A stretch of DNA of 31,691 bases from Fidelibacterota bacterium (GTDB taxonomy: Bacteria > Fidelibacterota > Marinisomatia > Marinisomatales > TCS56): positions 1 through 31,691 of the forward strand of contig JBDRBK010000005.1 of assembly GCA_043822705.1 (NCBI GenBank). The letters are read 5' to 3'. Below are positions 22,013-31,691 of this stretch, piece by piece. The number at the start of each line of letters is the position of its first letter. Within the stretch, counting starts at the first letter, position 1. The translations under genes were made by a program, and so were the position numbers. Under the pieces are notes generated by a model that was given only the letters and a program-made list of their open reading frames with translations, did no database searches and was not told the DNA's origin.

Positions 22013-22741
22013 TTACTTCAAAAGAATCATTTTTATTGTCTGCGATCGGGCACCGAGCGACAATCGTGCCAGATACACTCCGCCTGAGGCGAAATGTCCC
22101 TGTTGGTCGCACCCATCCCAAACTACCGATTTCCACCCGGAATCTTCAAAACCTTCCAGCAGTTGCCGCACCAGGCGGCCCCGCAGATCGTAAACACCTA
22201 AACTGATCCGAGCCGGTTCTTCCACCATATATGTTATTGTGGTTGCCGGATTGAACGGATTGGGGTAATTCTGTTCCAAACCAAACCGGCGCGGAACGGC
22301 CGATCCGGTTGTCAGTCCGACGATCGTGTTAACAGCATCAAAGATATGGGGCGTTGCGACCGTACCGATTGCATCATCGGCGACAAACTGAATCTGGCTG
22401 ATCACCGCCAGTACCGTATCCTGATCCGCGTCCCAGACTCTGAATGTAACTATCTCCCCGCTGCCATTGGCCCGGACCATCAGAAAATAGCGCCAATCGG
22501 CAGCGGCGGCGCTGGCAAACCCCAGCCCCCGACACTGATCGCCGACAAATGCTGCCACCAGATCATTATTGTCAACCGAAAGTTGAGCATTAATGGTAAT
22601 GACTCCGGTAATGGTCATGAAATGCTCAAAAGCGGCCGGATCGACCGTCCAATAGTCCGGTGGATCGGCCAGGGCAGCAACAACCGTTGTCAGGATCAGG
22701 ATGGCGGTGAGCAAACCACCGGACTGTTTACTGCTCTGCAT
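22013..22741 (-). CDS. Secreted protein with T9SS-type/FlgD Ig C-terminal sorting domain
   Basis: Signal peptide; one DLVAAFVGDQCRG domain also present twice in the upstream giant protein; QNYPNPFNPATTI...GGVYL...KMILLK. TAATG coupling. Confidence 0.85.
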   Translation of the reverse strand: MQSSKQSGGLLTAILILTTVVAALADPPDYWTVDPAAFEHFMTITGVITINAQLSVDNNDLVAAFVGDQCRGLGFASAAAADWRYFLMVRANGSGEIVTFRVWDADQDTVLAVISQIQFVADDAIGTVATPHIFDAVNTIVGLTTGSAVPRRFGLEQNYPNPFNPATTITYMVEEPARISLGVYDLRGRLVRQLLEGFEDSGWKSVVWDGCDQQGHFASGGVYLARLSLGARSQTIKMILLK

Positions 22742-25700
22742 TATTTTAACAAAACCATTTTCCGTACTTCACGGAAGTTTTTACTTTCCATTACCACGAT
22801 GTACACGCCGGAAGTGACGGGACGACCGCCTTCGTTGGTGCTGTTCCAGACTACGTAACGGTAACCTGCTGTCAAATTTTCGTCCACTAGTGTGCGCACC
22901 TCCTGCCCCAGCAGGTTGAAAATCCGAATTTTCACCCGGGCGTCTTCCGGAATCCCAAATCCCAGTTTGGTATTGGGATTGAATGGATTGGGGAAATTCT
23001 GGCTGAGCGAATACACGTCCGGCACGTAGCCGTAATCACCGACGCGCAGGGCGGCCCGAGTGAGCTCGACCGGCTGGGCCGGGTTACCGATTATGTCATC
23101 GGCCCTGAAGGTGAAAATTTCATTGGCCTGGTAGGTGATACCGCTTTCCGCCTCATGGATCTTCAGGCTGATAGTCTCGCCAGCAGTGCCGTATATCATC
23201 AGGAAGACCCGGTATTGTTCCAGTGCCGGGACATAAATCGGACGGGCTACACCGCGAACTTCATCGCCAACAAAAGCAGCCACTGCATCGGCAGGATCAT
23301 TTATGCCGACAGTGTCGCTTTCCAGCAGCAGCGTTGCCGTCATACTGGTCCGGAATTGGTTGGGATTGGCCTGCCAGCGCGTCTTCGGCAGTTCGCTGCC
23401 GTCGAATCTGGCCAACGGCGGCGGTTCGAAACTGCGGTAGGCGTCGGTGGGATAAACCAGTGTATCGATCGCCGCACTCCACAGCTTGTAGCCGTAGCCC
23501 GGCCGCAGCCAGCGCAGACTGCCGATCCAGCCGTAGCCTTCCAGATACTGGGCATAGGAAAATTGATCCTTCACCAGGTCGTCTGAACCACTATTCAGCG
23601 AATACAAGGCATCATTGATATTGAAATTCTTCGATGGCAGGTAGCCGACCCAGTTCCAGCCGTTGGCGATTGCGATATCGATCGTATCCGGTCCTACCGG
23701 AAATCCGACGTAGTCCAACGTATTGGCTGTGTCCAGGTCGCTATAGTACATCCGGCCCAGCTGCAATCCGGTTTCGGCCAGCGGTCCGGACCAGCTCTTG
23801 TCCAGCAGCGAATACTGGGCATACTTCTCCAAGCCGATCAAACGGTCGCCCTCCTGCAGTCGAAAATCACTGAAAAGGGAATCCAGGTTGCCAGCGAGTT
23901 CGCTCTCCAGATTGAAGGAGAACCAGGTGTAGCCCCGGGTCAACGCCAGTTCCTGGGCCACGGCACCATTGGCGTTCAATGCCAGCGGCGTCATGGGCGT
24001 ACCGGCGTAGGTATCGCCGGTGAAAATCAGGGTGGTATCCACCTGCCAGTATTCGGTGCAGCCGGTGCGGTCCCAGACATGGAAATCAACGATATCGCCG
24101 CTGTACTCATCGCTGTACACCGTCAGATAAGCGATGTAATCATCCAGCAAGACATTGTGCTCGATATTGATCAGACCACGACATTCGCCGTTGACAAAAG
24201 CACCCAGACGGTCGTACTCATCGAGAGATTGAGTTCCTTTGACAAAAATCCGGGCAGTAACATTCATACTGTACTGGTAGTCCCGCGGTTCAAACGCCCA
24301 GACCGGATACGGACACATCGACACGACATTGACTGCTAAAGGCTCCCTGCCATCCGGCGTAGCAGCATAAATCACTACGCTGAATTCACCTACATTCAGG
24401 TTAGGATCGATCGTAAATTGAATATTGAAGGAACCGCCGGGATTGATTTCCCCGACCTTGGGATTCGCCGTCAGCCATTCGGGCAGGTCGGTAATCTCAA
24501 AGGCCTTGGCGCTCGAACCAATGTTATTCAACGGAATCGAGAACTGATTGGTCTCACCGATAATGGCCATCAGGTCAGTGGCGGGGACATTCCACGCAAT
24601 TGGATTGCGGTTGACCTGGAATGACCAGTGTATTGTATCACCGGGATTGCCGTACATATCCTCGAAGCCGAAGATGGTCGCTTCCACAAAATGATTTTCA
24701 AGGAATGAATTGTGGATCTGTGGTATGATGACGATCCGTTCATTGGAAACGCTGACCTCAATATCGGTAATCTGGCCTCCGGCCTGGCCGTCATATAAGA
24801 TCACGTTGCTTCTTAATACCGTGGCCGGGTTGATTGCTTCCGTCAGGTTGACCGCAATTTCATCATTCATATTCAGCACCTGGTCCGTCGGCTCGGGAGC
24901 GCCAATGACGGTCGGCTTAACGCGATCAATCGTTCCGCGCAGGGGTGGCAGTTCATTGGTCAGCAATCCTTCCAGACAGATGGACCGTAGTCGTATGTCA
25001 TAGATGCCGTCCAGCAGGTCCCCGACCGGCCAGCGCAGGACGGCGGCCACCATGTTATAAAGCCGCAACGTATCGGCCTCCAGAATATCGTTGATCGTGA
25101 ACCAGGCATCACCACCCAAGGGGCGGTACTGGAGCCAAAGTTGATCAAAATGACTCTGCTTCAGATCAAAACCGGTAGTAACGATATCCAGGGTATCATT
25201 GTTATTGATATTAATCACCCAGTTATTAGAAGGGTCATAGATTTCGGCTTCGGTGCATGGTCGCGCAAAATTGACGGTAAAGGGCAGCGTGAAACCATCG
25301 GTAACACCGGCATAGTTCGCCTCACATTCCGGGGCGAATTTCAGTTGCAGATTTTCGTATTCATAATAATCATCCGGTCCGCACCAGACGGCGATCTGGG
25401 CGCTGTCGGCGGCATAGGCCGCCAGGGTATAGGGAATCGGGTCGCTGCCACCGTTAATTGATACATCTGCTCCCAGAGGATTGCTGGATTCGACAAAGGA
25501 CAGGAAGTAGGTCCGCTCTTCATCCTGATCGTTCCGGAGCAGGACCGACAACAGCGCTACATCGTCGGGCAGGATGTTGCTGATCGTTCCACCCGGTGCC
25601 TGCCATTCCATGTACGGTACATCCCGGGGGGTAGTTACGATGGTCCCTTCCTCATTATACCAGGTTTCGTAGGGGCAGGAGGAATTACCGGCGATCACAT

Positions 25701-28700
25701 GGAAAACCGGGGTACCATAGACAGGATCAGACCCGACGCTGACGCTATAATCATCACCGAAATCGTCGTCTTCCAGGGTGAATGACGAGGTATTAGAATT
25801 AGTCTGGGTACTAGAGGTATTAAAACCCATATTGAAACCGAAATTGAATTTTGTCGTAAACTCAAACCCTGCCGCATCATTCAATGAGAAACCAATTTTC
25901 TGGGCGAATTCAGTATTGATTTCCATCCCGATTTCAAAACTGGCGGCTTTTTCAACCTCGGAAGTCCGGGACATGCTGAATGCGCCCGCACCACCTTCGA
26001 AGGAATAGTTGACCGTATCCTCGGCGATCCAGCGCAGGGAATCTTCCCGGGCCAGAATATTATTCCAGCGTCGCACCGATTCCAGCATAGTGGAGTCGGT
26101 CATGGCCAAAAATTCCAGTTCCGGGACCAGGTAATCTTCGATATAGCCGCGTGTGTACACAAAGGTAGTGGCGAAACCGTCAGGCACGAAAATTACTTCG
26201 GATGTAAGCGCATACTGGTAAACATCATTAGCGTAGATCAGGTCCAGCACTTTCGTTTCACCGTAAAGCAGGTTCAGGGCGCCGCCGACAAATAAATCGC
26301 CGCGGTTGCCCAGCACTTCCTCAACATCACTGGTGGAATAGCTGGTCTCGCAACTCAGGCAGACTTTTTGCGATACATTACTGGAAGCACTGAAACTGGC
26401 TGAGATGCCTGATGTCATTTCATAGGTAGTTTCCATGTCAAGTTCGGTAGCTACGATCCAGCCGATCGAGGTCGTAACACCGACCCCCAGTTTGGCCGAA
26501 TATTCCTGGCTGTAGCCCATTGACGTACCCATGGTGAAACCAATTTCAGTACATTGCGATTGTGACGATGTAAACTCGGATACACTCTGATCCCCCGGTG
26601 GGCGACGCAGGATCAGGAAAGGAATATCCGGGGCGGTGGTAGTAAAATCCATCTGTTGCGGTTTATGCCCCAAAACAACGGCGCGGGCAGTCCTGACAAC
26701 CGCCGGACGCCCCAGGTTATCGGTGGCGATCACTTCGATTGACTTACTGTAGGGCGGACTTCCGGTCGGACTTATATTCGGCTGACCGGGTAAGAGTCCG
26801 TAGCGATACAGGCCATCACTGCTGAAAGTGGCGCTTACCGTATCCGACCGATCACTGATCAGATCGACAATCTTGTAAGTTCCACTGTCTACCGGACAAT
26901 CGAAATTGTCCCAATAGCGCTCGAATGCAAATAGATCCAGCGTATCGCGGACGTTCTGGCGGAATTGCTTGTGGCCCAATTCATTGATCGGGAAACCAGT
27001 GATCGAAGTCTGCATTGCCGTCCGGTAATTAAATACTATCGTATCTTCTTCGCCGATCCACAAAGAATCTATCTGTGAAAAGCTTTCTTCGGTGTTGACC
27101 GACTTGCCGCTATTGGCGAAATATTCATCCATTGCGATCAATTCCGGAACCGCAGGATTATAAGTACCGGTTTCATTGATATTAACCACCAACTGATAGG
27201 ACTGCGGCGGCAGGTTGAGGAAGAAATAATTACCCGAAGCGTCTACCGTGACCGATTTATTGAATAAACCGGAGCTTGGCCGCAACTCAACCTTGGCCAC
27301 TCCCCGTGGACCCAAGGGGCATTCGCAGATACCCCCGGTAACGGTTCCGCGAATAGTACGGGTTTTCAGGTCGATAAAATTGGCGGTACGATTGATTATC
27401 ACATTGGTGAAATCGGTGCTGTACGGGGAAAAGTCCACCATTTCGCGTGATACTTTATAGGGCTTGATATTGACATCGGCACCCGGCTCAACTTCCACGC
27501 GGTAAAAACCGTCTTTATCAGTCATGACGCCTTTGAATACGCCATTCACCCAGATCTGAACATTTGATTCACCACACTGGATGCCTTCGGTATTATCGGT
27601 ATCGTAGTAAACAAACCCGGTGATTGACATCAGGTTGGTAACAGTAAAATTCTGGCCGTTGGCCACCGGAGTGGCATCTGCCAGATAGACCAGTCGATAA
27701 GTCGGATTGAAGTCGTGGTATTCCTTAGTGGGCGTTAAAGTAAAATTGACCCCGCTGCCATAGTTTATATTATTGATCTGGTAATTACCGTCCAGATCGG
27801 TATAAGCGGTGGCATAGACCGGCGGTTTGGCGGTCGACCAGGTATCAACGGTAAGACTGGCAATCGTGCCATTCTTAGTCTGATCTACGGCATTAGTGAC
27901 AATCGAACCGGAGCCGCCATCCATATTAAACTGGGCGGTCATGTGCGGATAATTGACTTCACCCAGGGTCTGGTAGTACAAATAGCGGTTATAGTCACGG
28001 GCTAGATCTGTGGCCGACCGCGCTTCGTTCCAGAACAACAGATCATCGAGATTCCCCCGGAAAAACAGGCCGCTGGTTGATTTTCCAATTAATACTATAT
28101 CAGATACCTGGTCGCTATGGACCAGAGTATAAGCAGTCTGACCGGAATTGATTGTGGCAGCCTGACCGTTTATGAAGAATTTCAATACAGCATTACCGTC
28201 AGTGCCGACGGTTTTTACCAGGGCAATATGGGTCCATTCATCGACGCCGATAGTGGCATCGCTGGTCATTACGATGACTTCATTGACCTTGAATATCAGT
28301 TTACTGTAACCGGAAAGATTCAGCAGACCAATTTCCCAGTGACTGCCCTTGGAGATAAGCGCTTCATCAGCTACGCGGGTCGGCCGGAGCCAGAATTCCA
28401 CCGTTGCTTCAGGCAGGTCGGTGTTGTCGACAATTTCGAACTCATCCCCATCAGGTACCGTCGCATAATCATCCGTGCCGTTAAAATAGAGGGAAGTACC
28501 CCAATTGGGCGTAAGTGTCAGTTTGGCATTGGGAATTTTTGTCCCCAGCGAAGTAGCGATATTGCCCGAGACTGACCCCACCGTGGAAGTTTTACCGACC
28601 GCTGTCGTCGGTTCGACGGTCCAGCCAAACGAATTTTTCCCAAGGATTTTATAACTGTATTCAGTGCCTACATTCAACTCAACGGCATCATCGGTATAGC

Positions 28701-29151
28701 CGGTATTTTCAACGGGGTAATCATTGCGGATGATCACATCATTGCGATAAATATTATGCTTGATGGTAGCCGGTGGCGTGTTGGGGTCATAAGACCAGTC
28801 CAGGTCAATCCGGTCGGGAAATATTTCGTACGAGGCGGTCAGGTTAGCCCGACCCGGGGGGCGCAGCATCTGCGTCCAGAAACCCAGTTCCATACTGTAC
28901 CCACTACCAGTCATCGGGATAGCAGAAACAAACGGTTGTCCAACGATCACTGAAACCGATCCGACCAGGCGTTCCTCACCCACTTGAGCCGGTGCCAGGT
29001 AGCCGCTCATCAGTCCGGTACCACCGTTTATTATTACATGGTCCGACGTATACCCGGCAAAAGTCATTATCAGCAGCCAGGGAATCAACAGCACAGCCGA
29101 TCGCAACGGACTCCTGATGTGAGTAACCATATTACTTTTATTTGAATTCAT
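22741..29151 (-). CDS. 2136-aa secreted multidomain protein (FN3-like, LamG, CnaB/Ig-like, central Ser/Thr-rich domain, T9SS-type CTD)
   Basis: Signal-like N-terminus; LamG motifs SLYFNGTDDY, TVEFWLRP, WTHIALV, FRGNLDDLLFWN; TDxDGxY repeats; QNFPNPFNPNT...SGVY...KMVLLK. Confidence 0.88.
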   Translation of the reverse strand: MNSNKSNMVTHIRSPLRSAVLLIPWLLIMTFAGYTSDHVIINGGTGLMSGYLAPAQVGEERLVGSVSVIVGQPFVSAIPMTGSGYSMELGFWTQMLRPPGRANLTASYEIFPDRIDLDWSYDPNTPPATIKHNIYRNDVIIRNDYPVENTGYTDDAVELNVGTEYSYKILGKNSFGWTVEPTTAVGKTSTVGSVSGNIATSLGTKIPNAKLTLTPNWGTSLYFNGTDDYATVPDGDEFEIVDNTDLPEATVEFWLRPTRVADEALISKGSHWEIGLLNLSGYSKLIFKVNEVIVMTSDATIGVDEWTHIALVKTVGTDGNAVLKFFINGQAATINSGQTAYTLVHSDQVSDIVLIGKSTSGLFFRGNLDDLLFWNEARSATDLARDYNRYLYYQTLGEVNYPHMTAQFNMDGGSGSIVTNAVDQTKNGTIASLTVDTWSTAKPPVYATAYTDLDGNYQINNINYGSGVNFTLTPTKEYHDFNPTYRLVYLADATPVANGQNFTVTNLMSITGFVYYDTDNTEGIQCGESNVQIWVNGVFKGVMTDKDGFYRVEVEPGADVNIKPYKVSREMVDFSPYSTDFTNVIINRTANFIDLKTRTIRGTVTGGICECPLGPRGVAKVELRPSSGLFNKSVTVDASGNYFFLNLPPQSYQLVVNINETGTYNPAVPELIAMDEYFANSGKSVNTEESFSQIDSLWIGEEDTIVFNYRTAMQTSITGFPINELGHKQFRQNVRDTLDLFAFERYWDNFDCPVDSGTYKIVDLISDRSDTVSATFSSDGLYRYGLLPGQPNISPTGSPPYSKSIEVIATDNLGRPAVVRTARAVVLGHKPQQMDFTTTAPDIPFLILRRPPGDQSVSEFTSSQSQCTEIGFTMGTSMGYSQEYSAKLGVGVTTSIGWIVATELDMETTYEMTSGISASFSASSNVSQKVCLSCETSYSTSDVEEVLGNRGDLFVGGALNLLYGETKVLDLIYANDVYQYALTSEVIFVPDGFATTFVYTRGYIEDYLVPELEFLAMTDSTMLESVRRWNNILAREDSLRWIAEDTVNYSFEGGAGAFSMSRTSEVEKAASFEIGMEINTEFAQKIGFSLNDAAGFEFTTKFNFGFNMGFNTSSTQTNSNTSSFTLEDDDFGDDYSVSVGSDPVYGTPVFHVIAGNSSCPYETWYNEEGTIVTTPRDVPYMEWQAPGGTISNILPDDVALLSVLLRNDQDEERTYFLSFVESSNPLGADVSINGGSDPIPYTLAAYAADSAQIAVWCGPDDYYEYENLQLKFAPECEANYAGVTDGFTLPFTVNFARPCTEAEIYDPSNNWVININNNDTLDIVTTGFDLKQSHFDQLWLQYRPLGGDAWFTINDILEADTLRLYNMVAAVLRWPVGDLLDGIYDIRLRSICLEGLLTNELPPLRGTIDRVKPTVIGAPEPTDQVLNMNDEIAVNLTEAINPATVLRSNVILYDGQAGGQITDIEVSVSNERIVIIPQIHNSFLENHFVEATIFGFEDMYGNPGDTIHWSFQVNRNPIAWNVPATDLMAIIGETNQFSIPLNNIGSSAKAFEITDLPEWLTANPKVGEINPGGSFNIQFTIDPNLNVGEFSVVIYAATPDGREPLAVNVVSMCPYPVWAFEPRDYQYSMNVTARIFVKGTQSLDEYDRLGAFVNGECRGLINIEHNVLLDDYIAYLTVYSDEYSGDIVDFHVWDRTGCTEYWQVDTTLIFTGDTYAGTPMTPLALNANGAVAQELALTRGYTWFSFNLESELAGNLDSLFSDFRLQEGDRLIGLEKYAQYSLLDKSWSGPLAETGLQLGRMYYSDLDTANTLDYVGFPVGPDTIDIAIANGWNWVGYLPSKNFNINDALYSLNSGSDDLVKDQFSYAQYLEGYGWIGSLRWLRPGYGYKLWSAAIDTLVYPTDAYRSFEPPPLARFDGSELPKTRWQANPNQFRTSMTATLLLESDTVGINDPADAVAAFVGDEVRGVARPIYVPALEQYRVFLMIYGTAGETISLKIHEAESGITYQANEIFTFRADDIIGNPAQPVELTRAALRVGDYGYVPDVYSLSQNFPNPFNPNTKLGFGIPEDARVKIRIFNLLGQEVRTLVDENLTAGYRYVVWNSTNEGGRPVTSGVYIVVMESKNFREVRKMVLLK

Positions 29152-29208
29152 CAGGTTATCCTTTCAATCCAAAGTTTATTTCCTAAAAAACGTTTCGGAT
29201 AAAGGAAC

Positions 29209-30888
29209 CTAATTATTCACCTGTTTTTCAAGGGCTTCAAGTCGTTTGACTAAATCATCAATGGCAATTTGTTGCCGATCGATCAGTTGTTGCTGCTCCT
29301 GAATAGCAGCAATCGCCAGGACCGAAAAATCTTCATATGTTAATCCAAGATAATCCTCATTTGCTTTCACAATATCAAGATCGGGAAATACTTCCTGGAC
29401 ATCCTGGGCAATGAAACCAATTGATTTTGGTTCGGAATCATCTTCGGTTTTCATATGATAAGTACTTGGCTTTAAGCCCAGCACTTTCGGTAAAACACTG
29501 CCGAGTGGCTCAATATTCTTCTTCAACCGGCGATCGCTGGAATGACCATAGGCGCCATCATCATCGTCGATCCAGCCTTCACCGCCAACACTGCAATGGA
29601 ATACCAGATCCTCATCCCCGGACTCATTATCGATACCAAAATCCCAATAGTCGGTACCGGCTTCCGAGCCGGAAGGTAGTTGAAGTCGTAGACTATAGGA
29701 ATTGGCATTGTCTGCTACCTTAGGGCCAATAATATGCATACTGCGCCCCGGGCTGGACGTACCAATGCCAACATTACCATTTGAAATAACCATATCAGCA
29801 ATGGAGCCAGTACGGTAAAAGGCAAACTGTGAACTGGTATTAAACCACATAGTGCTGCTGGAGATACCAAGACCATAGGAAGCAGCTGCCGTGCCACTTT
29901 TATATAGCAGAATTTGATACTCATCATAGGTGTTCACCGGAAGTTCAGCGACATTATTCACTATTTGCAGGTTACTCACCGGTGTTGTCGTTCCGACGGC
30001 CAGTTTGGATTGAATTGCAGTGCCGTTGGTATATTCCCCACCCCAGTTCAATATCAACTGATCCCATGATGTATTACCAAGTATTGCCAGGTTGCGATCA
30101 TCGCCGGAACTAGCTGACCCACCCTGTATCCAGACATCATAAATGTCGTCGGGATAATCATTCCGTATTTTTCCGCGGACATCAAGCGTGTTTGTTGGTG
30201 CAGCGGTGCCGATACCAATTGTACCATTGGCCCGTACATGGAAAATTGTTGAATAGTCTGCCGTGGCACTTTGACGGCCGACCACCGAATAACTATCCTG
30301 GGAATCGTTACCATCGATGCCAAACATCAGATGGGCGCTGGCGGGACCCTTGATAAAAGTACCGGACGTACTGCCGCCGGCCAGATTTATCGGATGGAGG
30401 CTACCGGTAAGGACCTGATGCGTTGCATTCGCAATTTGAGCGGAAAAACCTCCCACATCCAGCTTAAAGCTGGGTGAAGCCGTGCCGATACCCACATTAC
30501 CATCCTGCGGAAAAACATTGGTGATACCATTCATGCCGGCCATGACCGCATACGGGGATAGCGTCAGCTTGGTGCGCGGGCTTAATTCCGCGGCTCCATC
30601 TATGGAAATCCCCAGCCAGTAGCTGAGATTGTAATCCAGGCCGGCCAAACTGTTAACCGACCCTAGCAAAGCCGAATAGACACCATTGGTGACAGTCAGT
30701 GTCTGGGTTTCATTCCAGACGGCCGTGCCGCTGGTGGAAACAGTGTACAACTTGAATTGAATATTATAACTACCCTGAATAGACGCACCCGTATCATCGC
30801 GGATTACGCCCTGGATACTGAGTGTTTGCCCGAAAGACAGTGAAATGGCTATTAATAAAATTCCGGTCGCTAGTATGAATTGACGCAT
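29209..30888 (-). CDS. Secreted tail-fibre-like trimeric protein with C-terminal peptidase S74 intramolecular chaperone
   Basis: Sec signal peptide; N-domain SIQGVIRD...VWNETQ...NGVYSALLG...SPYA; four GNVGIGTxxP-type repeats; SSDRRLKKNI...GFIAQDV...coiled coil. RBS AAGGAGG. Confidence 0.9.
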   Translation of the reverse strand: MRQFILATGILLIAISLSFGQTLSIQGVIRDDTGASIQGSYNIQFKLYTVSTSGTAVWNETQTLTVTNGVYSALLGSVNSLAGLDYNLSYWLGISIDGAAELSPRTKLTLSPYAVMAGMNGITNVFPQDGNVGIGTASPSFKLDVGGFSAQIANATHQVLTGSLHPINLAGGSTSGTFIKGPASAHLMFGIDGNDSQDSYSVVGRQSATADYSTIFHVRANGTIGIGTAAPTNTLDVRGKIRNDYPDDIYDVWIQGGSASSGDDRNLAILGNTSWDQLILNWGGEYTNGTAIQSKLAVGTTTPVSNLQIVNNVAELPVNTYDEYQILLYKSGTAAASYGLGISSSTMWFNTSSQFAFYRTGSIADMVISNGNVGIGTSSPGRSMHIIGPKVADNANSYSLRLQLPSGSEAGTDYWDFGIDNESGDEDLVFHCSVGGEGWIDDDDGAYGHSSDRRLKKNIEPLGSVLPKVLGLKPSTYHMKTEDDSEPKSIGFIAQDVQEVFPDLDIVKANEDYLGLTYEDFSVLAIAAIQEQQQLIDRQQIAIDDLVKRLEALEKQVNN

Positions 30889-31184
30889 GATGGCCTCCTT
30901 GGTAGCATTACGCTTGATTTAACAATGGTCGTTATTCATGATAGAATTTTAAGGTGGTGCTGGCGATATAAGAATTCAGAAGTAAATATACCTACTGGTA
31001 CATGCAGGTACCGGTACAGCCAAACGCTGGTATCGGGCAGGGGGCGCCTGCAAAAATGATAAGTTAAGTTATCCAACTGTTCCCTGATTGGTTACTTAAA
31101 TTTGGTCCGATACTGCCAATATATCAAATTATTTTGATTGGTGGATATAAAGAAATATTCACTGTTCTGATAGCCCCGGCTGCA

Positions 31185-31200
31185 TTCGCCCGCGGGCGAA
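31185..31200. repeat. Perfect 16-bp palindrome at the distal end of the GIY-YIG array
   Basis: TTCGCCCGCGGGCGAA is self-complementary. Confidence 0.7.
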
Positions 31201-31248
31201 CTTTCACGTTGTCGACTGCACTCCTGCGAGACAAAGTCGAGTGAATAA

Positions 31249-31311
31249 GTGGCGTCCGCCCCAGGCGGATAAAAGTCGAACTTTACGCACCTATGGCGCG
31301 TCCCGTCCGAA
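31249..31311 (-). pseudogene. ssrA: Degenerate tmRNA 3'-end fragment, copy 1 (two 19-nt insertions; acceptor strand partly deleted)
   Basis: Identical to copy 2 from 31254 onward, but GTGGAGGCGGGGAG is reduced to GTGGCG. Confidence 0.55.
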
Positions 31312-31542
31312 TTGTTGATCCAACCACGCCCGACCCTTCCCGCTTTTCAGGAATTTCTCTCGTTCCCTGGCCGATCGATAATCGGAATATTCTTCGGTGA
31401 GCAATACATGAAAATCCCCGAGTATTTTCTGCACAGTTGATTTTGCCGACTGGTGCTCTTTTATCCTGCGGGCAAGATTATTGGTAATACCCACGTATCT
31501 TTTGTTCTTGGTTTTACCAGTTAACACATAGACCGTAATCAT
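31291..31542 (-). CDS. Small stand-alone GIY-YIG nuclease (UPF0213/SLX1-like), 83 aa
   Basis: VYVL...RYVGITNNLARRIKEH...AREREKFLKSG with the catalytic Tyr/Arg/His/Glu pattern. Confidence 0.92.
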   Translation of the reverse strand: MITVYVLTGKTKNKRYVGITNNLARRIKEHQSAKSTVQKILGDFHVLLTEEYSDYRSAREREKFLKSGKGRAWLDQQFGRDAP

Positions 31543-31560
31543 ATATAATCAATTCTTTCA

Positions 31561-31631
31561 GTGGAGGCGGGGAGTCCGCCCCAGGCGGATAAAAGTCGAA
31601 CTTTACGCACCTATGGCGCGTCCCGTCCGAA
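31561..31631 (-). pseudogene. ssrA: tmRNA 3'-end fragment, copy 2, interrupted by two 19-nt hairpin insertions
   Basis: Minus strand TTCGGACGGGA[19]GTTCGACT[19]CTCCCCGCCTCCAC. Without the inserts it reads GGAC-GGGAG-TTCGACT-CTCCC-CGCCTCC-AC: T-arm plus Ala-type acceptor strand, preceded by the tmRNA-typical GGAC. Confidence 0.75.
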
Positions 31632-31691
31632 TTGTTGATCCAACCACGCCCGACCCTTCCCGCTTTTCAGGAATTTCTCTCGTTCCCTGGC
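31611..31691 (-). CDS. Second GIY-YIG nuclease copy, 3' end only
   Basis: Identical to 31291-31371 (AREREKFLKSGKGRAWLDQQFGRDAP*). Confidence 0.85.
   Translation of the reverse strand, partial: AREREKFLKSGKGRAWLDQQFGRDAP

Follow-up and report, generated by a model that had tools for sequence, protein, structure and literature searches.

Results

A hairpin-split tmRNA tail at the contig end

The window analysed here is an entire contig, C5 (31691 nt), of a genome bin of 3.34 Mb in 218 contigs. Its genes (multihaem cytochromes, a sigma-54 two-component system and others) are those of an ordinary chromosome, and a reading of the window as a prophage or island was rejected. Close to the right end, a complete gene for a single-domain GIY-YIG nuclease of 83 aa (31291..31542, minus strand) was recognised as an open reading frame (ORF) with a match to Pfam PF01541. 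It is preceded by an 18-nt spacer, TGAAAGAATTGATTATAT (31543..31560, minus strand), which leads from a tmRNA-type end to the ATG. This end is a tmRNA tail split by two hairpins, hereafter the module. Read on the minus strand from 31631 to 31558, its order is TTCGGACGGGA / CGCGCC-ATA-GGTGCG-TAAA / GTTCGACT / TTTA-TCCGCC-TGG-GGCGGA / CTCCCCGCCTCCAC / TGA. The first piece (31621..31631, minus strand) copies the 3' region of tmRNA as far as the T-stem 5' strand, is the same as in the real tmRNA gene on contig C7, and also codes for the residues F-G-R-D of an upstream, partial GIY-YIG ORF. It is followed on the same strand by the hp1 unit (31602..31620), a hairpin with one G.T pair and a TAAA foot; by an 8-nt copy of the T-loop (31594..31601); by the hp2 unit, in which the foot precedes the hairpin (31575..31593); by the 3' strands of the T-stem and of the acceptor (31561..31574), identical to the C7 tmRNA end; and by the TGA (31558-31560). 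On the plus strand, the hp2 unit reads TCCGCC-CCA-GGCGGA-TAAA, that is, again a hairpin followed by TAAA. The T-loop copy and both 4-nt feet together form a third small hairpin, AAAGT-TCG-ACTTT.

An earlier, sequence-only reading of this DNA had described the two units as 19-nt insertions (insert A is the hp2 unit, insert B the hp1 unit), and we recovered both as it gave them: each has a 6-bp stem, a 3-nt loop and TAAA, and they lie inverted, 8 nt apart, at 31575-31593 on the plus strand and 31602-31620 on the minus strand, where they do split a duplicated tmRNA T-arm. It was also right that insert B supplies the current TAG stop of the upstream ORF copy, which falls in the hp1 loop (31611-31613, minus strand).

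The module is present twice, a point that the earlier reading did not raise. A 118-nt perfect direct repeat (31254-31371 = 31574-31691, spacing 320 nt) carries a second, identical copy at 31255..31311 on the minus strand, with TTCGGACGGGA at 31301-31311, hp1 at 31282-31300, the T-loop at 31274-31281 and hp2 at 31255-31273; in place of CTCCCCGCCTCCAC, this distal end of the array has a decayed acceptor remnant, CGCCAC (31249..31254, minus strand). The final codons and the TAG stop of the complete nuclease gene lie inside the tmRNA-derived piece and hp1. At the other end, the 3' part of a further GIY-YIG gene copy (31611..31691, minus strand) is truncated by the contig end; its 26 residues are 100% identical to those of the complete gene (tblastn). 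Because the contig stops within this further copy, two units are the minimum for this tandem array. The sole content of the 320-nt unit is the 83-codon ORF, with no other gene. In the window, ARAGORN found no tRNA or tmRNA and Rfam gave no RNA family match; a scan for intrinsic terminators returned no terminator-like site at the hairpins, because they have no T-run.

The nuclease matches PF01541 over residues 2-68 of its 83 aa (E = 1.7e-13), with no other domain, and ends 15 residues past the GIY-YIG domain, those residues being coded by the tmRNA-derived piece. No separate DNA-binding domain was found in the protein. An NCBIfam search returned nothing specific (TIGR01453, group I intron endonuclease, reached 25.9 bits, the cut-off being 56), nor did a PDB sequence search (best match 1zg2, UPF0213, E = 0.21). 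Homologues were collected from 80 loci in many phyla. We built a quick version of the nuclease tree, which leaves 42 of its 72 inner branches open. Labels cluster on it (41 changes against a shuffled mean of 56.7), yet kin share labels, so that this clustering says little about transfer.

The unsplit counterpart on contig C7

ARAGORN located the genome's one tmRNA gene at C7:19577-19927, with a 3' end reading ...TTCGGACGGGAGTTCGACTCTCCCCGCCTCCAC. The window fragment minus both 19-nt units is this 3' end, letter for letter. The earlier proposal that removing the units restores the T-arm is thereby confirmed, and the unplugged allele that it had suggested looking for exists: it is the real tmRNA gene. 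The longer ORF ending in ...FGREFDSPRLH, taken there as the ancestral state, did not stand up; it arises simply because the 3' end of tmRNA can be translated in the same frame, and the ORFs of relatives stop within hp1 or beyond it.

The 18-nt spacer of the window recurs on C7 directly after the tmRNA gene, and next comes a nuclease gene copy 97% identical to that of the window. The C7 copy is one base shorter near codon 11 and is therefore frameshifted. The DNA 3' of this copy (C7:20189-21088) is 92.4% identical to window positions 22091-21192. Given this shared flank, we regard C7 and C5 as two strain versions of one locus; the contamination of the bin is 6%. The C7 version is without about 9.2 kb, corresponding to window positions 22092-31290 and to three genes for surface proteins (242 aa; 2136 aa, with Laminin_G_3 and FlgD_ig domains; and 559 aa, with an endosialidase chaperone domain). 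A CGCC-TNA-GGCGGA microhomology in the hp1 loop marks its deletion junction. The C7-type junction was also found in two groundwater runs, in fragmentary Logan contigs in which no joints were seen. Since C7 and C5 are strain versions, the working tmRNA gene of the C5 strain should lie just beyond the window end.

Conservation of the module in relatives

We collected 11 distinct Fidelibacterota modules of the window type, defined by a T-loop between both units. Ten have both units, and the eleventh (L096) has hp1 and a mutated T-loop, without hp2; at its right end, this module runs into a 12-bp hairpin beginning TCGACTT, described below. The hp1 stems come in 8 variants among the 11 modules, 3 of them with one mismatch and 5 fully paired (CGCGCC/GGTGCG, CACGCC/GGCGTG, CCCGCC/GGCGGG, CCTGCC/GGCAGG and TCAGCC/GGCTGA). 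The hp2 stem TCCGCC/GGCGGA is constant across the 11, except in L132, where the 3' arm differs, and in L096, while its loops vary. In a 14-row alignment (A1), hp1 pairing reached 94%, against 33-48% in slid controls; hp2 is under-counted on this alignment because MAFFT shifted four rows. The two hairpins are separately conserved and orthologous, in hosts whose nucleases are 61-68% identical. An exact 22-nt pattern across the module gave 7 matches in 185,579 species genomes, all in Fidelibacterota/FCB metagenome-assembled genomes (MAGs) and several at contig ends. Five of the matches have sufficient flanking sequence, and every one of them neighbours a window-type GIY-YIG gene or a fragment of one; contig ends cut off the other two.

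The two sides of the module differ in how they relate to the resident tmRNA gene. To the right, the T-stem 3' strand after hp2 tracks the resident tmRNA, being CCCCC in three loci and CTCCC in three, and the T-loop piece of one lineage (L112 and L002) is GTTCAACT, the same as the resident tmRNA T-loop. To the left, the GGGA before hp1 is independent of the resident gene and is still GGGA where the resident stem is GGGGG. With GGGA constant and the part from the T-loop rightward matched to the host, the left part travels with the cassette. The hairpins are a conserved right-end module of a selfish cassette of about 320 bp, not stray insertions.

A wider family of hairpin plugs

We assembled a wider set without requiring pairing, by extracting, in 56 loci, the 19 nt that lead up to the first T-loop motif downstream of the ORF. 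In 49 of these, the stretch is CTTG followed by a 6-bp stem, a 3-nt loop and the second 6-nt arm, abutting T54 and paired throughout; the 7 remaining loci turned out to be intact tRNA genes further downstream and were left out of the alignment. In the resulting 49 rows, 288 of 288 cells are paired; the stems come in 8 variants, and both partners have changed in 26 cells. None of 500 shuffles reached the observed pairing, and slid controls gave 24-43%. The GCC/GGC core of the stem, the 6+3+6 geometry and the 4-nt feet are kept across phyla. The alignments show that hairpin pairing is conserved with compensatory changes and is under selection.

The site of the plug varies: before T54 (the 49 loci above), on both sides of the T-loop (the window type), or between TTC and GAA (the tRNA-Ser cassettes of contig C94). 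Two near-identical cassettes, L026 and L042, carry the unit before and after the T-loop, respectively, and units are multiplied in tandem in L018, L021, L012 and L072. The C94 and C211 nucleases have one hairpin type in common at just 35% identity, and co-variation of nuclease clade with hairpin type is weak.

The units are concentrated behind the nuclease genes. Across 76 related loci, the density of hairpin+TAAA units is 2.95/kb in the 200 nt past the ORF end (46 units in 15.6 kb) and 0.10/kb elsewhere (21 in 202 kb), about 28-fold lower. The 46 units past the ORF end lie on the coding strand in 41 cases and on the other strand in 5. A stop codon falls within or right after the hairpin in 45 of 78 ORF ends; the stop supplied by hp1 in the window is thus a habit of the family.

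In the genome of the window, we searched for 6-bp hairpins with a loop of 3-4, at most 1 G.T pair and a following TAAA, using five Markov-1 simulated genomes as control. There are 61 such units, against 43-63 in the simulations, and 12 GC-rich ones, against 7-15, of which 4 are the window's own. As these counts fall within the simulated range, the unit type is not enriched genome-wide. Two inverted pairs, each 8 nt apart, within 366 nt and recurring in independent assemblies are nevertheless not due to chance. An orphan tandem cluster lies at C100:36198-36260 (minus strand), with CCCGCC-TCT-GGTGGG-TTAG and CCCGCC-TGT-GGCGGG-TAAA; no nuclease or tRNA gene was detected nearby, and the cluster is near a contig end with a CCTGATC repeat.

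These counts divide what the sequence-only reading had made of the units. The hairpin scan that it suggested found enrichment behind GIY-YIG genes and none genome-wide: the tie to the GIY-YIG gene is borne out, while the dispersed family of REP-like micro-elements is not, and two recent insertions of one element cannot be reconciled with hp1 and hp2 as separately conserved, orthologous parts of one module. It had also named co-location with a RAYT/IS200-type transposase as the contrary outcome; five Y1_Tnp (PF01797) matches in the genome lie elsewhere, on C115, C162, C176, C106 and C149.

Linkage to tRNA and tmRNA gene ends

Among the first 60 loci, 42 have the end of a tRNA or tmRNA gene at most 250 nt upstream on the same strand, 8 of them a tmRNA. 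Of the others, 2 have a downstream tRNA alone and 15 have none detected, 8 of these being shortened by contig ends. Each of the six small GIY-YIG loci in the genome of the window comes after an RNA gene: tmRNA, tRNA-Ser(tga) twice in tandem, tRNA-Ser(gga), tRNA-Ser(cga) and tRNA-Asn. Besides the window and C94 arrays, genes of this small type, or broken remnants of them, follow directly on tRNA-Asn at C211:2600-3100, on tRNA-Ser(gga) at C94:22421-22650 and on tRNA-Ser(cga) at C151:4450-4853. The nuclease family is strictly linked to the ends of tRNA and tmRNA genes in many phyla.

Two GIY-YIG genes with 34% identity to that of the window stand in tandem behind tRNA-Ser(tga) at C94:16298-16946 (minus strand). 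At the end of either gene is a T-arm copy that one long hairpin (CCCGACTGAC...GTCAGTCGGG) splits between TTC and GAA of the T-loop; the C94 cassettes have a different plug, with the same logic as the window module. Tandem arrays also occur elsewhere: L004 has two 320-nt units, and L107 is likewise tandem, as is C94. The working tmRNA gene of L001/L116 and L112 is separated from the nuclease gene by a plugged tmRNA-end copy that has no ORF; just before this plugged copy, L112 has what look like the final codons of a lost gene copy. These ORF-less copies suggest that arrays decay copy by copy.

In the same order, a window-type gene lies directly behind the tmRNA gene in 7 of 30 tmRNA loci; some of the other loci have scars or another type of GIY-YIG gene or hairpin, and many have no element at all. 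A second element type, which starts exactly at the tmRNA 3' end, was seen in L095, L097, L118 and L123. It has a 12-bp hairpin beginning TCGACTT, and a different small GIY-YIG gene comes next in three of these loci. Short scars stand behind tmRNA in L099 and L100, which belong to one genus; the L100 scar, GGCGGATAAACCCGCCTCCAC, combines a half-hairpin with a foot and another acceptor end, without a nuclease gene.

Predicted single-strand fold

As single-stranded DNA (ssDNA), the module is predicted to fold into a four-way junction, in which the T-stem GGGA/TCCC closes three hairpins with triloops, hp1, AAAGT-TCG-ACTTT and hp2. The predicted fold has -17.3 kcal/mol (z -2.87) for the coding strand and -16.0 kcal/mol (z -2.19) for the other strand; the intact T-arm region, for comparison, has z -0.54. 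The module is close to two-fold symmetric, and hairpin-TAAA(A)G-T(T)CGA is shown by either strand.

Discussion

On balance, we lean towards reading the hairpins as ssDNA recognition sites of an Ssn-like nuclease, which would also split the duplicated target. They are read as binding sites because the protein has no DNA-binding domain and because the Ssn nucleases provide a precedent. On this model, heavy transcription or replication of the tRNA or tmRNA gene could expose ssDNA, in which the nuclease would bind the hairpins, as characterised single-domain Ssn nucleases do. Next to these it would cut each strand once, so that the two cuts flank the T-loop. As a GIY-YIG nuclease that acts by hydrolysis is unable to reseal DNA, the model has to rely on host repair: the break would lead the host to copy the cassette, with tandem growth and homing into an unoccupied gene end as the outcomes. 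Plugs cut the 33-nt tmRNA-end repeat into stretches of 11, 8 and 14 nt of uninterrupted identity, and a side effect may be that the displaced copy is neither a working T-arm nor a good partner for recombinational deletion. Several points count against recognition of the hairpins by the nuclease, among them the weak co-variation of nuclease clade with hairpin type, the poor resolution of the tree and the unspecific outcome of the NCBIfam and PDB searches. The published degenerate SRM pattern has 0 sites at the C5, C7, C94 and C211 cassettes and 9 genome-wide; the intact T-arm of the working gene adjoins the cassette; and unequal crossing-over alone can also make tandem arrays. A broader proposal, which we put forward tentatively and rate as possible rather than probable, is that the 320-bp unit represents a new kind of autonomous mobile element. 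Such an element would consist of an 83-codon structure-specific nuclease and a three-hairpin DNA junction around the T-loop; the hairpin pair would direct a single cut in each strand to the borders of the T-loop, and the cassette would then be copied by host repair into the ends of tRNA and tmRNA genes in many bacterial phyla.

The hairpins could instead be passive plugs, not bound by the nuclease, that shield the duplicated end from recombinational deletion and from a duplex homing nuclease recognising the T-arm, the immunisation suggested in the sequence-only reading. The short stretches of identity left to the real gene would fit this, as would the insertion always at the borders or centre of the T-loop, and the C7 deletion allele, compared with the window, shows that recombination at the module end does occur. 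We nevertheless think this unlikely: any insertion would do as a plug, yet phylum after phylum keeps the GCC/GGC core, the geometry and the feet, with compensatory changes; a protein of 83 aa that lacks a DNA-binding domain is an improbable reader of a long duplex site; and with a plain T-arm as duplex target, the adjacent working gene and other tRNA genes would be cut as well. A role in RNA, in which read-through from the tmRNA or tRNA promoter yields an mRNA that the 3' hairpins stabilise or process, or in which they block tRNA-like behaviour of the duplicated end, would account for the ORF start 18 nt past the tmRNA-type end with no coding-strand promoter evident in the spacer, for the excess of coding-strand units and for the stops in or right after the hairpin. 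It leaves unexplained the two-fold symmetry of the window type, with hairpin+TAAA on both strands, and it is at odds with the lack of a T-run, of a terminator-like call at the hairpins and of an Rfam match; we judge it distinctly improbable.

If a REP-like mobile micro-element of 19 nt had inserted twice, independently, into a duplicated tmRNA end, this would agree with units that are discrete (4+15 nt), that stand before or after the T-loop (L026 vs L042) and that multiply in tandem, and with the one orphan cluster without a nuclease on C100. Against this stand the absence of a genome-wide excess, the consistent difference between hp1 and hp2, each orthologous across genomes, and the position of every exact-pattern match with sufficient flank beside a window-type GIY-YIG gene or fragment. 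For this genome, the REP-like insertion reading is largely refuted, and we give it very little weight. Even less, indeed next to none, goes to an assembly artefact or a chance resemblance: the contig ends inside a repeat and the bin mixes two strain versions, but assemblies made independently in other studies have this architecture as well.

Several known systems share features with the cassette. Genomic islands and prophages integrate in the 3' ends of tRNA and tmRNA genes and are bounded by attL/attR direct repeats. As there, an intact gene stands on one side and a displaced 3'-end copy on the other, and arrays build up in tandem at the same site; unlike there, the 320-nt unit has no gene for a tyrosine or serine recombinase or integrase, its displaced copy is split by conserved hairpins, and the whole element is one 83-codon gene. 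REP/REPIN elements with their RAYT enzymes and the subterminal hairpins of IS200/IS605 are likely read as ssDNA. The cassette resembles them in its short hairpins with a short foot, arranged in inverted pairs and probably read as ssDNA; these elements are also discussed in the paper on the Ssn system (PMC11893778). It differs from REP/REPIN-RAYT in that its enzyme is GIY-YIG, not HUH/Y1, and in that its units are not dispersed. Enzymes of the Seg and I-TevI type have a C-terminal DNA-binding domain and cut duplex DNA, whereas the window protein is the catalytic core alone, and the window cassette has in addition a hairpin module and a duplicated target end. SegB of phage T4 is described as encoded by a free-standing GIY-YIG homing endonuclease gene in a tRNA gene cluster (PMC2330249); the likeness is that of a selfish GIY-YIG gene with tRNA genes around or beside it, a gene that presumably spreads through copying induced by a break.

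The closest likeness in protein size is to the Ssn family, the only characterised GIY-YIG proteins of such size. According to Chenal et al. 2025 (PMC11893778), SsnA of Neisseria meningitidis is a 94-aa single-domain GIY-YIG nuclease whose binding to hairpin repeats requires ssDNA and whose cuts fall upstream of the repeats, and the authors compare the NTS-ssnA-NTS gene layout to an insertion sequence. Both families are single-domain GIY-YIG proteins (about 90 aa there, 83 aa here), and in both the gene is adjoined by GC-rich hairpins with short loops and an oriented flank, which in arrays stand to either side of it. The published SRM search pattern, in contrast, is unmatched by the hairpins of the window family, which lie inside a duplicated T-arm and are not dispersed in hundreds of copies; tRNA and tmRNA have 0 occurrences in that paper (PMC11893778). 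Full-text literature searches, whose coverage stops short of subscription journals, found no paper describing GIY-YIG hairpin cassettes at tRNA or tmRNA ends. Small selfish GIY-YIG genes with hairpin repeats are known; the targeting of tRNA and tmRNA ends and the hairpin-bracketed T-loop are new.

Even if the hairpins were only plugs, they would be a tidy means of keeping a duplicated target inert. If they are recognition sites, the nuclease would be a natural, minimal GIY-YIG enzyme that reads a defined ssDNA junction, and the Ssn class of programmable ssDNA cutters would be extended to new hairpin specificities. The cassettes would also account for many genes annotated as 'GIY-YIG nuclease family protein' beside tRNA genes and for assembly breaks at ssrA. 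Should the mobile-element reading be true, these units would be among the smallest protein-coding mobile DNAs, with a target unable to mutate away; and with the hairpins as recognition sites, they would represent a selfish gene that uses the T-loop, biology's most conserved loop, as its landing place.
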